Source of the DNA: Eledone cirrhosa
Lineage: Eukaryota
Length of the DNA stretch: 64,000 bases
Direction of reading: 5' to 3'
Assembly: GCA_964016885.1 (NCBI GenBank)
Contig: OZ024740.1
Span: forward strand, 339,388,001-339,452,000
The notes beneath the pieces were generated by a model. The model was not told the DNA's origin, did no database searches, and was given only the letters and a program-made list of their open reading frames with translations. Below are positions 10,625-52,989 of this stretch, in pieces (position 1 is the stretch's first letter; each line of letters begins with the position of its first letter). The translations under genes were made by a program, and so were the position numbers.

Positions 10625-11100
10625 TCATCATCATTTTACGTCCGCTTTTCCCTGCTTGCAAGGGTGGGACGGGTCTTATTCAGCACAGCATCTCTCTCTT
10701 TGTCATGGTCCATCGTCATCTCAACCGATCTGAGGTCTGTTCTCACCACCTCCGCCCATGTTTTTCGTGGTCTACCTCTATCACGTCTTCCTCCAACTGG
10801 CATTTCCTGGCACTTCTTCACCCATCGGTATTCCTCCATGCACATCACATGTCCATACCATCTCAGTCTCCTCTCTCGCACACTACATTCTATCCCTCTC
10901 AGACACAGTTTCTCTCTCAACACATTCATGCTGAGTCGTTCACACACATTGACATTGCACATGCAATGGAGCATGCTTGCCTCATTTCTCTCCAGCTGTC
11001 GCATGTCCTCTGCGGTTGCTTCTCATGTCTTACTACCATGCAGCATCGCGCTCCTCACACAGGCATCATATAACCGGCCTGTCATATGCAGGGAGAAACC
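10625..11100 (-). mobile_element. RTE LINE 3' fragment (lineage D)
   Basis: ORF 10636-11004 [27 protein letters not shown]; very short 3'UTR ending GGACGTAAAATGATGATGAT; 5' end abuts (TA)n. Confidence 0.9.
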
Positions 11101-11282
11101 TATATATATATATATATATATATATATATTTAATTATGTAATAAACAACACGATATAATTATTTCATTACCCAATGGAATAATATATATATATGTTGGCA
11201 TATATATTTGTGTATATATATATAATATTTATATATATATATGTATATGTATATATATATATATTTGTGTATATATATATAT

Positions 11283-11470
11283 TTGTTTCTACTTTTGGCA
11301 CAAGGCCAGCAATTACCCAGTACATTACTGTTACTTTATTTTACCGACCCCGTAGGGATGAAAGGCAAAGTTAACCTCGGCGGGATTTGAACTCAGAATG
11401 GAAAGGGCCGTAACTCTATGCGTCAAAGCATGACGTCCGATCCTCTACCGATACTGCCAATCCACCGCCC
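11283..11470 (-). mobile_element. SINE family 1 (reverse), young copy in TA tract
   Basis: Near-identical to the 35133-35327 copy. Confidence 0.9.
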
Positions 11471-11533
11471 TTATATATATAATATTCATATATGTGTATA
11501 TATATATATATATATATATATATATATATATAT

Positions 11534-12018
11534 CTAAGGCGGGTAAAATTCCCGAGATCCATGGACGAGTTCTCTCCAGCGGTCTCTGTCCCTCATTATC
11601 GCTGCCATGTCCTGCGTCTCCAATAGACCAGTATCTGTCCTTAGGGCATCAACATACGTTAACCTTGGTCTTCCTCTTCTAGTGTGTCCATGTAGGGGCT
11701 CCCAAAGGAACACTGAGTGCAATGTCAACTCTGGATGTCGGTGAGCATGTCCAGCTAACCTCAGTCTCCTCTGTGTCACTTTTGAGCTGACTTTTGGGAT
11801 GCTCCCATACAGCTCTGAGTTTTTCATCCTCAGTATATACTGATTAATGTTCAGAGCCATCCTCAGCGTTCTCGTGTAGCACCCATCCTCCATTTGAGTG
11901 AGTTTCTTGGTCAGTGTCCAAGTCTCAGACCCATACAGCAGCACAGACTCCACTACAGCAATGAAGAGGCGGATTTTCAGGTCTCTATGAAGGTCCGACT
12001 TGCACACCAATCTCAAGC
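11534..12018 (-). mobile_element. RTE-X-like LINE 3' fragment (lineage C)
   Basis: [45 protein letters not shown]; both ends abut (TA)n. Confidence 0.85.
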
Positions 12019-12054
12019 ATATATATATATATATATATATATATATATACATAT

Positions 12055-48628: not shown

Positions 48629-48688
48629 TATTTGTTTCGACACACGATTTCATATCAAAAACCTCACAAAACATATATATATATATAT

Positions 48689-49012
48689 GGAGGCACATGG
48701 CTTAGTGGTTAGAGCATTGGCAATCGAAAGGTTGTGAGTTCAATTCTCAGACCGGGTGATGTGTTGTTTCCTTGAGCAAGACACTTTATTTCACATTGCT
48801 CCAGTTTACTCAGCTGTAGAAATGAGATGATAGGATTGTGGTCCCTCTCATTCCACTGTAAAGTGGACGTGTAGGTGCCATGGAAAAAAAGCACCCAGCA
48901 ATCACTGTAAATGAGGTTGGTGTTAGGAAGGTCATCCAGCTGTAGAAATCAAGCCAGAATTAGTTCCCGTCCCTTGCAAGCAGGGAAAAGTGGACGTAAA
49001 ATGATGATGATG
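48689..49012 (+). mobile_element. SINE family 2 with RTE-derived tail
   Basis: Close match to 31794-32138. Confidence 0.9.
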
Positions 49013-49235
49013 ATATATATATATATTCATCACCATTTTACGGCTATTTTTTCACAGTAGCATGGGTTAGATGAAGCATGGGATATATAAATATCCGTAT
49101 GTAGTTGCCCGCTGAGAAAAAAGAGTGCTCAATACTGAAGCAAAGTTTAAATATTCATTTTATTAAGGCTAAATAGTGAGTAACAAGACCCACTCTAAAA
49201 CCTTAATAAAATAAATATGTGTGTGTGTGTGTATA

Positions 49236-52200
49236 TCATCATCATCACCGTTTTACGTCCGTTCCTCCACGCTAGCATGGGTTAGACGGGTTGTCCTGTT
49301 GTGGGCAGTGTCTGGTCGGCTGACCATGCCTTGCTCATACAGGAACTGATTTGGCTTGATTTCTACAGCTGGATGCCCTTCCTAACACCAACCTCATTTA
49401 CAGTGAGTGCTGGCTGCTTTTTCGTGGCGCCTACACGTCCACTTTACAGTGTGGGCTGGGTGCTTTTTTGCCGTGGCACCTCCACGACCACCTTGCATTG
49501 GGGGGTGTGGGGGCATATTGTCTATATGCTTCAGCTTGTACCCATGGGAGGTCAGGTACTCTGTTTTACTGCGTGACGCCAGAAGTCACGGTCGTGTGTC
49601 ATTGCCTTTGAGAGGTGTAATTGGGTAAGGTCGGCTTTTATCACCTCATCCCAGGTCATCTTGGGTCTCCCCACTCCGCAGTTTCCATCAACTTCTAGTG
49701 CTCTGCACCTTTTTATGCAGCTGTCATCCTTCATACGCATCACATGTCCATACCAGCGCAACCGCCTCTCCTGCACACAGCATTTGATTCCTCTTATGCT
49801 CAGTCTCTCTCTCAATTCATTTATGCTTTGTCGTTCGTGTATATTACAATTACACATCCATCGGAGCATGCAGGCTTCGTTTCTCTCTAATCTATGTAAG
49901 TCTTCCACCTTCAGCGCCCAGGTCTCACTACCATGCAACATTGCTATTCGGATACACGCATCATACAGCCTGCCTTTCATTTTTAGGGAGAACCCTTTAG
50001 TGGCTAATAGTGGTATAAGCTCTCTGAACTTTTTCCATCCAGTTCTGCCTTTCATTCTGAAGGAGAAGCCTTTTGCAGCTAGCAGTGGTAGTAGTTCCCT
50101 AAACTTCTTCCATCCCGTTCTTACCCTAGTTATTGTACTTTCTGAACACCCACCTCCGCTGCTAATTCGGTCACCTAGGTAGCAGAAGCTGTCTACTGTT
50201 TCTACAGAGCCCTCCCAGAGATTGGTGGTACTTGTTTCCTGTGGCTGTTTGCTGCTTGCTGTCTCAGCACACCTGCTGCATGTGAAGTCTACATTCTTAA
50301 TTAAGCTTCCTGAGATCCCGCTACATCTCTTGTGTACCCATTGTTTGCATTTGGGGCAGAGAATGGAGTTCCTACCTACACCTTTCCTACATACTGAGCA
50401 AGGCCATTTCCCTGAGGGGATCTGGGTTCTGTTTTCTCGTCTACTTACAAGGACCTTAGTCTTTGTCATGTTGACTTTGAGACCCTTTCTTTCTAGTCCC
50501 TGCTTCCAAGTTTGGAATTTATTCTCTAGTTCTACCATAGATTCAGCTATGAGTGCGAGGTCATCAGCATACAGGAGTTCCCATGGGCATCTGGTCTTAA
50601 ACTCCTCCAACCTCTACGCTAAATTCCTCGCTATACTCATTGCTAATCCTAACTTTGCTGACTGCTTCCCTATACATGGCTTGTACCGCTTTCACAAGCC
50701 ATTCATCTACTCCTAGTTTTCTAAGAGCCCACCAGATTACAGCACGTGGAACTCTGTCAAAGGCTTTCTCAAGGTCAACAAATGCCAAGTAGAGTGGCTT
50801 ACTTTTAGCTAGGTACTTTTCCTGTAATTGCCTCACAAGGAAGAGGGCATCAGTGGTGCCTCTTCCTGGTACAAACCCAAATTGCATCTCGTCTATTTTC
50901 ACCCGGTCCCTAATCAACTGTGCTATAACTCTTTCTGTTACTTTCATGACCTGGTCCATCAACTTTATACCTCTATAGTTTCCTCTATCTAGTGCATCGC
51001 CTTTACCTTTGTAGCAGTTGACAATGATGCTACTGCACCAATCTTTTGGTATGGCACCTTCTAGTATTACCTGGTTAACAATACGTGTGGTTATAGTGTG
51101 ACCTACAGACCCAGATGCCTTCAGCATCTCGGCAGCTATACCCGATGGACCGGTTGCCTTCCCCATCTTCATATCTTTGATTGCCTTACTTACTACGCTG
51201 CTGCTGACTTGTACTGCTGGTCCCTCTGTAGGGTCTACTTGGGGTAGGGTCTCTTTTCCCATGCATTCTCCTCATTTAGTAATCCATCATAATGACTCTT
51301 CCATGCATCTTTCTTCTCAGCACTTGTGAGGGCAAGCTCACCTGTATCATTCCGGATACACTTCTCTCCAATGACATCACAACTATCTCTGACACACTGC
51401 CTCGCAATCTTGAATACCTCCTGTTTCTGGTCCTCACGTTGCAAAACATGCTTGAATTTTCTATCCTCTGCATCCCTCCTAGCTAAGTATACTTGTCGCC
51501 TAGCTTCCCTCTTGGTCTCTATGTAATGTACCCTGCTCCCCCCGTTCTTTCATTCTTTCCATGCCTGTCTCTTGGCCTTAACTCCTTCATCTACCTTATT
51601 GTTCCACCACCAAGTCACTCTCCTCCTGCTTGAGGTCTTACTCCAGCCACAGACCTCATCTGTCGCCTCTAGTAAATTATTTTTTAGGAACTCCCAGTTC
51701 TCTTCTACATTAAATGTCTCTATCTGTTCTTCTTTACTGTCGTAGGCGTTGAGTAAAATATCTTTAAATCTGTTACTGGTTGAGGGGACTTTCAGCTTCC
51801 AGATCTTTCTTCTCCAGGTTGGCCTCTGTTTCCGGGTTCGTCTAGTTCTGACCGTGAGGTCGCTGACAACTAAGCTATGTTGGGATGTACATTCCTCACT
51901 AGGGAAGGCTTTTGTGTTTACGACCGTCCATCTGTCACGTCCTCTGATGAGGATAAAATCTAACTGACTAGAGTGCTCCCCTGATCTATAGGTGATCAGG
52001 TGGTTGTCGGGTTTTTTAAAGTTTGTGTTACATATCGACATGTCATTGGTGTCGCAGAATTCTAGAAGTCTGAATCCTTCCTCATTCCTTGTGCCAACCC
52101 CATGGCCTCCATGTACTCTATTGAAGCCATCGCAGTGTTTACCTACGTGTCCGTTAAAATCTCCTGCGATGATTAGGAAGTCATTGTCGTCTGTTAGAGC

Positions 52201-52362
52201 AGTAGTATGCATTAGGGACTCGTAAAACCCATCCTTAAGTTCGTCTGGCAGCCCCGATTGGGGTGTGTAAGCTGATATTATTGTGGTAATTGTTTTATTC
52301 AGGACTAGTCTGATTTTAATGATTCTTGCATTTACCCTGTACACTGAGATTACTTTATCTAC
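49236..52362 (-). mobile_element. Longest RTE lineage A copy: APE endonuclease plus RT, disrupted
   Basis: APE motifs ISAYTP, IAGDFNGH, QLDFIL, SQH (51550-52344); [24 protein letters not shown]; deletion of the QGSVLSP region at ~50607; frameshifts. Confidence 0.96.
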
Positions 52363-52989
52363 CCATATATGTGTATATGTGTATGTATATATACTTTATC
52401 TACCCATATATGTATATATGTGTATGTATATATATATATATATATATAAGGTGAGTTGGCAGAATTATTTGGATGTCAGATAAACTGTCTTGCACAATAC
52501 ATTCTACTATCTTTGTTCTGAGTTGGAATCCAACCAAAGTCAACATTGCATTACATCCTTACAGTCAAGGGCTAAGTTTGATCTTCTTCTCTTGCTCTTT
52601 CATGTTCTGAAAGAAATTTGTTTTCTTTAGATGTGGAGAAGGCTAGGCTCCAGAAGGTTGAAAATGCTGAAGACATGAAGTATGCACCCCTATGATTCTA
52701 TTAGTTGGGGGTCCAATCCGTTCTTGCATGGGTTATATAGATAGAAAAGCAGATGTAAAAAGATTGATTACGTGTGTGTGTTTGTGTATACATTTAGTAT
52801 TGACAGTCCCAAGAATGAGTACTCAATACCTTAGTAGTGATTAATAATTTTTATTAAGGATGAGTCAGTGTCCTGTTTGTTGGGAGTTTCATCTCTAATC
52901 ATATAAACAAAACTTCAGAATAACAGGCCACTGACTTAACCTTAATAAAAAAAAATATGAATTTTTCTCCTCACCAGATTGCTGAGAAA

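Follow-up and report, generated by a model that had tools for sequence, protein, structure and literature searches.

The genome of Eledone cirrhosa, available as a chromosome-scale assembly of 3.0 Gb, contains islands of (TA)n sequence occupied by several kinds of retroelement. The 64,000-nucleotide (nt) stretch of contig OZ024740.1 analysed here (positions 339,388,001 to 339,452,000, hereafter the window) carries 227 perfect (TA)n runs of at least six repeats at 10,625-52,440, and only 3 and 2 such runs in its flanks (22 kb). Embedded in the TA-rich region are short repeats with hammerhead ribozyme motifs, fragments of Penelope-like elements (PLEs) encoding a reverse transcriptase (RT) or a GIY-YIG endonuclease, and long interspersed nuclear elements (LINEs) of the RTE type. 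Most of the young inserts abut TA sequence at one or both ends, as a prediction made earlier from the sequence of this DNA (the original prediction) had proposed, and there are exceptions such as the RTE tail at 19,279. Here, we describe an analysis of the window and of a genome sample. We conclude that TA islands have very probably been filled by at least four coding PLEs together with hammerhead repeats that are likely copied in trans by PLE enzymes, and that one of these repeats seeds new TA targets.

Hammerhead motifs and TA tracts in the window and the genome

Minimal type I hammerheads were sought with a descriptor comprising helix I, CUGANGA, helix II, GAAA, helix III, and a UH cleavage site. 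Seven positions in the window matched (12,243, minus; 12,350, plus; 16,179, plus; 28,428, plus; 30,648, plus; 46,599, minus; 46,679, plus), each at a distance of 99-205 nt from a TA tract, and the flanks yielded none, which upholds the earlier claim that hammerheads are almost absent outside the TA-rich region. The seven matches represent four families, A (12.3 and 28.4 kb), B (16.2 kb), E (30.65 kb), and I (46.7 kb), and motifs at 47,241, 22,078, and 14,834 fail the descriptor. Each of 30 block shuffles of the window gave 0 or 1 match. In an alignment of 15 motifs from five families the core is invariant and the helices vary, and folding z-scores of single motifs are weak. No hammerhead reached the Rfam gathering score in the window, and none was among the best 150 of 271 weak matches, which correspond to AT-rich microRNA models; such silence is expected for minimal hammerhead variants.

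The association with TA tracts extends to the genome. We sampled 60 evenly spaced 10-kb pieces of large contigs (600 kb, 0.02% of the genome) and obtained 39 descriptor matches, compared with 0-2 in each of 10 shuffles; a TA tract lies within 300 nt of 37 of them, as against 27% of background positions. Five matches with a U3-A8 core were removed as likely false, leaving 34, and the merging of inverted pairs reduced these to 31 independent hammerheads. A (TA)n tract lies within 330 nt downstream of 27 of the 31, in comparison with 34.7% of positions at the same loci (p 2.4e-9) and 18.5% of positions across all samples. The original prediction had named a genome-wide enrichment, and an excess of motifs over shuffled sequence, as its tests, and both were borne out. 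The sample has about 57 hammerheads per Mb and the window 109; because the enrichment holds genome-wide and the window has only about twice the average density, the window is typical of the genome and is no special site. A rough extrapolation from 34 motifs in 600 kb gives about 170,000 motifs in the genome.

Insertion anatomy of non-coding and coding elements

The TA-rich region contains seven copies of four non-coding families, three of which occur there as head-to-head inserts:

12,058-12,446, no strand: family A head-to-head insert, long 3' end left and short right; cores at 12,243 (minus) and 12,350 (plus)
28,133-28,527, no strand: family A head-to-head insert; cores at 28,316 (minus) and 28,428 (plus)
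16,090-16,278, plus strand: family B, a relative of A; short 3' end abutting TA, core at 16,179, inverted long-end stub at left
46,396-46,832, no strand: family I, non-coding and inserted head-to-head; minus-strand core at 46,599, plus-strand core at 46,679
35,390-35,528, no strand: family H head-to-head insert, half hammerhead only
44,765-44,966, no strand: family H head-to-head insert with its short end on the left and its long end on the right
47,960-48,012, plus strand: family H short remnant

Families A, B, H, and I are short; their copies, either single arms or pairs joined head to head, have a common 5' limit; the junction between arms varies per copy, and each of the two fixed 3' ends, one long and one short, is joined to TA. 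No open reading frame (ORF) was found upstream of the copies of A, I, or H that were read, these copies ending at the common 5' limit, and no tandem units were found in the copies of all four families that were read. Since they are not tandem, A, B, H, and I appear better called non-autonomous PLE derivatives than retrozymes. An identity as miniature inverted-repeat transposable elements (MITEs) was rejected because the arms are unequal, the junction differs per copy, and there is no constant interior.

Head-to-head inserts obey a pairing rule. A long and a short 3' end are combined in 113 of 125 inserts overall. Among 101 inserts of A, I, and H there are 90 long+short, no long+long, and one short+short combination, the remaining 10 having a broken arm; the queries for I and H held the long arm, so that short-short pairs are under-sampled in these two families and long-long pairs are not. 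For the tandem family E, described below, 52 loci were taken in positional order (12 non-overlapping loci of 25, plus 40); 23 of 24 pairings are long+short (one with a broken arm), the single long+long case belongs to a nested, rearranged locus, and 76 of 79 terminal ends run into (TA)n of at least four repeats. Fixed 3' ends are likewise found at TA in family C (short end, 15/15), B (18/19 and 19/21), F (13/14 and 5/5), the Hydra-type PLE (long end, 5/6), and D (long end, 12/16). The arms of one insert are more alike than arms of different inserts, with divergences of 2.2% versus 7.2% for A, 2.7% versus 4.5% for I, and 6.4% versus 10.3% for H, and one A insert (locus L009) is clearly discordant. 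Head-to-head joins between families are rare (3 versus about 140 same-family pairs of high-scoring segments, plus loci L045 and L284 recognised by eye) and could be deletions. That a tail marks one of two inverted pseudo-long terminal repeats (pseudo-LTRs) of PLEs was already known (Arkhipova 2013; Craig 2021), and for the PLE Poseidon this tail was reported to mark two RT start sites, hammerhead cleavage being unneeded for insertion (Frangieh 2024, PMC11167929); in the literature searched, as far as its text was available, we found no quantification of long+short pairing.

Four coding PLEs are represented in the window by fragments, one of them also by an older pseudo-LTR pair:

32,416-33,264, minus strand: family F, a Neptune-type coding PLE represented by its 3' end; GIY-YIG domain at 32,880-33,261, pseudo-LTR core at 32,640
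48,172-48,672, no strand: older F-like pseudo-LTR pair, head-to-head, short and long end, GAAA mutated
23,022-23,219, minus strand: Neptune-type PLE, C-terminal end of its GIY-YIG endonuclease with the 3' untranslated region (UTR) behind it, 5' end at a TA tract
29,233-29,613, minus strand: family D, piece of the 3' UTR from a coding PLE with RT and GIY-YIG; non-canonical motif at 29,384-29,419
45,012-45,650, minus strand: young Hydra-type PLE, RT fragment lying between two TA tracts and lacking its pseudo-LTR

Relatives of the 45-kb, F, and D fragments carry a single ORF with an RT and, at its C terminus, a GIY-YIG domain, and pseudo-LTRs in partial tandem; coding PLEs also have a 5'-truncated copy in inverted orientation, and one of their ends bears a tail, and the Hydra-type coding PLE has the same long and short ends as the non-coding families. 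The RT fragment and both endonuclease fragments named in the original prediction were confirmed. The endonuclease of F (32,880-33,261) matches PF01541 with an E value of 1.4e-4, just under the curated cut-off; Pfam gave no match for the endonuclease end at 23,022-23,219 or for the Hydra-type RT, and the former, whose relatives carry the endonuclease core upstream, belongs to a fourth PLE endonuclease. Family F has a CX4CxxC linker before GIY-YIG, and both F and the 23-kb fragment carry the CX2-5CxxC linker of the Neptune clade; the name Neptune is tentative for both, because Nematis and Naiad share the linker. The 45-kb RT family is young (90-100% identity, 150 scored matches), and its ORFs of 927-979 open codons show the motifs RWK, DKT, and CxCX5C, by which we provisionally assign it to the Hydra clade. 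These motifs, and insertion of almost all families in (TA)n, are reported for that clade in the available text of Craig 2021 (PMC8557442). As a separate observation, the long tail of D runs into a Hydra-like endonuclease frame at one locus (L175, L178, L140), the ORF of D itself being of another type.

The canonical core (CUGANGA, GAAA, UH) is present in most copies of A, B, C, E, F, and I, and A, B, E, and I pass the full descriptor including helices I, II, and III. In family F (32.6 and 48.4 kb) the core is canonical in 20/20 copies, and weak helices I and III cause it to fail the descriptor. Six of the nine hammerhead families originally named thus have a canonical core, one (G, described below) is old and decayed, and two (D and H) are coreless. 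Family D (29.4 kb) has a hammerhead shape on the minus strand, with AGUUGAU replacing the core in 21/21 copies read, and family H (35.5, 44.8, and 47.95 kb) has only a GAAAC..GUC half hammerhead with a palindromic loop, CUGANGA being absent among the common variants of 73 copies read. The pseudo-LTR core of the Hydra-type PLE is the variant CUUGAGAA in 19/19 copies read. D, H, and the Hydra-type PLE (29,384-29,419; 44,846-44,869; pseudo-LTR at L251-L255) are young and abundant, and all three retain helix III and its palindromic loop despite non-canonical cores. The earlier suggestion that non-coding ribozyme RNAs are moved by PLEs is only partly upheld: A, B, E, H, and I share the PLE insertion anatomy, F and D represent the 3' ends of PLEs that code for protein and so are not non-coding RNAs, and 'ribozyme' is too strong a term for H and D, which have no canonical core.

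Further observations concern these families. Variable (TC)n or (TATC)n runs lie between the long ends of family I and the TA tract (L031-L060), possibly as a result of RT stutter at priming. An apparent arm-specific A/G difference in family I was discarded as a selection artefact: the search favoured a rare word and missed a closer copy (L126) without the variant. A Hydra-like RT piece at the junction of a head-to-head H insert (L151, G000:C24:18897579-18900715) gives a hint as to the enzyme that might mobilise H. Another abundant non-coding foldback family, absent from the original prediction, has long and short ends in TA (L339, L028, L287, L310), and a repeat at 47,079-47,900, with CUGAUGA at 47,241, shows a fixed-point inversion in copies L121 and L123.

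Tandem retrozymes, tract reuse, and the filling of TA islands

Two further families are tandem, a third is decayed, and the TA tracts relevant to them are listed here:

30,252-30,921, plus strand: family E, 1.4 units (466 nt each) of a tandem retrozyme; canonical core at 30,648, short 3' end meeting TA
30,360-30,408, no strand: TA-rich tract inside the E unit, first copy
30,826-30,874, no strand: TA-rich tract inside the E unit, second copy
30,922-31,793, no strand: longest host TA-type tract of the window by tract scan, imperfect, 872 nt
16,307-16,456, minus strand: family C, truncated copy of a tandem retrozyme with a unit of about 480 nt; core mutated here
34,880-35,030, minus strand: family G, an old family of hairpins whose hammerhead has decayed; core at 34,956
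52,804-52,960, minus strand: family G, decayed copy lying beyond the TA islands, with no tract closer than about 400 nt

Family E forms head-to-tail arrays of up to five or more units with one hammerhead per unit and no ORF, and its unit is strongly self-paired (z -8.4). A pattern search with an exact 27-mer of E found 11,603 occurrences in the genome and none for the reversed control, so that copies of the E motif number at least 11,603. Family C (16.4 kb) has the canonical CUGACGA in 16/16 other copies read, and tandem copies exist. As tandem units with one canonical hammerhead each and no ORF, E and C are non-LTR retrozymes by the sequence definition of that class. Family G (34.9 and 52.9 kb) is old, with 70-89% identity; its window copies have mutated cores, and CUGAUGA is kept in some relatives.

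Each E unit brings its own TA target. We read 118 internal E tracts: 105 remain intact, with lengths of 24-138 nt and a median of 54 nt, two are expanded (166 and 264 nt), one is atypical, five end the copy, and five hold a later insert beyond which E resumes. Locus L262 holds an H pair, L273 an RTE-type element, L342 the first RTE family of the window, L334 an insert of about 400 nt of no named family, and L328 a 33-nt piece. The target carried by E is thus reused by both PLE-type and RTE-type elements. The daughter tracts measure 86 and 111 nt in L262 and 56 and 66 nt in L273, sums above the intact median, which suggests, from few cases only, that tracts grow after insertion; the spread of intact tracts and the two expanded without insertion mean that slippage alone can explain such growth. 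The claim that insertions create reusable targets therefore holds for the internal tract of E and, as regards growth, for few cases only. In host tracts, variant 7-mers are shared by the two flanks of one insert at 0.22, compared with 0.11 for random pairs (2/2000 permutations, n=17).

Tracts are also entered by RTE-type LINEs, three of which lie in the window:

12,907-14,526, plus strand: RTE LINE, 5'-truncated, (GAT)n tail, both ends in TA
17,560-19,330, plus strand: RTE LINE of a second family, 5'-truncated, 5' end in TA, tail with no TA after it
49,245-52,363, minus strand: RTE LINE, near full-length, apurinic/apyrimidinic (AP) endonuclease, 5' end at a TA tract

Of the RTE-type (GAT)n tails sampled, 10 of 33 are followed by (TA)n of at least five repeats, as are 8 of 15 such tails in the window (background 1.8%), and in a second RTE-type family TA follows the tail in 8 of 12 cases. 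The most abundant short interspersed nuclear element (SINE), which we take to be of the OR type, uses TA in 3 of 53 cases. The proposal that both RTEs and SINEs use the tracts thus stands in part for RTEs and hardly at all for the commonest SINE. RTE-clade elements reportedly use an endonuclease of their own for cutting at TA dinucleotides (PMC13295347, available text), and because the RTE of the window has an AP endonuclease, tract sharing needs no PLE enzyme.

These observations suggest the following sequence of events. A PLE GIY-YIG endonuclease with a cysteine linker would cut (TA)n, as the Hydra- and Neptune-type motifs and the literature indicate, and the RT would then prime at two fixed RNA sites, one for each cut strand. 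Two cDNAs would result, whose 5'-truncated ends would be joined variably to give a long and short head-to-head insert welded to TA. Such inserts are what we observe, and their order of priming we infer. Insertion would split the tract into two targets, as seen in the tract borne by E and more weakly in host tracts, and a tract of about 54 nt is delivered with every unit of E, target number rising with E copies. RTE LINEs would enter these tracts by means of their own AP endonuclease. Hammerhead cleavage would likely be needed only for processing the tandem retrozymes C and E and be dispensable for insertion, because H, D, and the Hydra-type PLE have spread with non-canonical cores. A bolder version, which we consider conceivable and rather doubtful, would make the PLE-mobilised retrozyme a target-seeding feed-forward engine of TA-island and genome growth, in which every unit supplies a (TA)n site for its own enzyme and for other retroelements, the long+short rule arises from an asymmetric RT dimer acting on RNA paired through helix III, and the hammerhead is a dimerisation and packaging signal more than a ribozyme; if true, RNA pairing by the palindromic helix III loop would explain why the palindrome is kept in the coreless H, D, and Hydra-type families.

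Several points weigh against the filling of the islands by PLEs and trans-copied repeats. No non-coding family was matched by sequence to the pseudo-LTR of a coding PLE, so that trans-mobilisation is argued from anatomy, and the PLE clade names come from motifs and not from a tree. For two of the 34 hammerheads in the sample, neither side has a tract within 330 nt, locus L342 split its tract with no growth, and the G/C polarity of flanking tracts agrees in only 8 of 10 cases (p 0.11). The RT piece at 45 kb and D at 29.2 kb end in TA and lack a normal 3' end, so that the islands also owe their shape to deletions occurring later at TA tracts.

Such fragments, cut at non-standard points beside TA, are also what might be seen if TA tracts were simply fragile sites that break alone and capture any cDNA, no element targeting being involved. 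Breakage would then be by cruciform cleavage. Unrelated elements (RTEs, a DNA transposon, and PLEs) share the tracts, and RTE tails are enriched about 15-fold at TA over background. Use of the tracts is nevertheless family-specific, ranging from near 100% of PLE-type ends to the 10/33 RTE tails and 3/53 SINE copies given above, and passive capture would not yield two fixed 3' ends paired long with short; we regard this explanation as unlikely. If insertion itself made the tracts, a telomerase-like PLE RT would stutter on a short TA seed and write (TA)n at both junctions. The (TC)n and (TATC)n runs of family I, the enlarged daughter tracts of L262 and L273, and the available report that, for a plant DNA transposon targeting TA, occupied sites exceed empty ones in length (PMC4486113) would fit such a process. 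Yet in 237 loci (1.27 Mb) no clean TA-insert-TA interruption was found of a known element body lacking a tract, the five candidates all being unclean and one of them (L112) ambiguous; the reused tracts pre-exist in E, the flanks of host tracts share variant repeats, and slippage alone can explain growth, since E tracts reach 264 nt with no insert. Stutter as the origin of the tracts is accordingly very unlikely. TA tracts are hard to assemble, and the islands might be assembler chimeras joined through them, an explanation that is extremely improbable given that element ends coincide to the nucleotide in many contigs and combine a long with a short one, that interrupted E units resume in register past the insert, and that the same pattern recurs in the 60 evenly placed samples.

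Comparison with known systems and other features of the window

The probable targeting of TA tracts by PLEs that would also mobilise hammerhead repeats resembles several published systems, and the earlier picture is largely right. Its components were known: hammerheads in PLEs, the targeting of (TA)n by PLEs with a linker, and retrozymes as non-autonomous PLE derivatives. New here are a retrozyme carrying a reused target, a measured long+short rule, and successful families with non-canonical cores. The comparisons that follow draw on the available portions of the cited papers. For Hydra-clade PLEs, Craig 2021 (PMC8557442) describes canonical hammerheads as universal and tails of 30-40 nt, whereas the Hydra-type family found here has the variant core in every copy read and tails of 35-165 nt. 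The minimal type I hammerheads of PLE pseudo-LTRs (Cervera and De la Pena 2014, PMC4209133) are similar to ours in their short palindromic helix III, their many heterogeneous families, and their opposite-strand pairs 100-700 bp apart; that study reads single or opposite-strand motifs as probably truncated PLEs, whereas A, B, H, and I look like separate, non-coding entities with a fixed 5' limit, and their TA targeting, unlike there, has been measured here.

Animal non-LTR retrozymes (Cervera and de la Pena 2020, PMC7229834; Li, Clavereau and Pollet 2026, preprint 10.64898/2026.07.22.740005) resemble E and C in being non-coding, tandem, and strongly self-paired, with one type I hammerhead per unit, and their mobilisation by PLEs has been proposed. 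The units of E and C are larger (466-520 nt, compared with about 150-450 nt), their (TA)n ends are of the PLE long/short type, and E carries its own TA target; no microsatellite targeting is seen in the available text of those reports. Our literature search found no retrozyme that carries or targets TA and no report of hammerheads in cephalopods; it covered subscription papers and Repbase thinly, and the supplements of Craig 2021 and of two retrozyme papers may list some such retrozymes. An annotation of Octopus vulgaris repeats reports active RTE and PLE families, and hammerheads are unmentioned in its available text (PMC13282606). Poseidon of the green anole (PMC11167929) also has two internal RT start sites that explain the tail, cuts both strands in AT-rich DNA, and has a predicted protein dimer; in vitro its start sites show no strand difference, whereas the genomic inserts here are almost always long+short. 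The plant elements MuTAnT and Micron (PMC4486113) are likewise non-coding foldback elements nested in (TA)n, with longer occupied tracts; they have terminal inverted repeats and a transposase, in contrast to the unequal arms, variable junctions, and hammerhead per arm found here.

These results bear on how PLE head-to-head inserts are made and on what PLE hammerheads are for. The genome is a very large natural sample of short defined RNAs, in which two RT start sites have been mapped for each family and young ORFs are intact, and both questions become testable in the existing in vitro system. A target-carrying retrozyme offers a concrete route for the multiplication of microsatellite islands, and foldback elements of this kind may be annotated as MITEs, SINEs, or unknown repeats.

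Several other features were noted in the window. Broken fragments of a DDE-type transposase with a CRHH motif lie at 23,904-25,825 (minus strand) with TA tracts on both sides; they had no Pfam match and no copy in a search of the 600-kb sample, and resemble hATm elements. Within the RTE ORF at 17,561-18,916 a PHD-like zinc finger follows the RT domain, and at 41,040-41,760 the 5' end of an RTE copy is joined to about 40 nt of its own 3' flank in inverted orientation. Two tandem arrays are present, nine copies of a 73-nt unit at 36,176-36,826 and 27 copies of a 48-nt unit at 55,848-57,156, the latter resembling an RTE 3' UTR.

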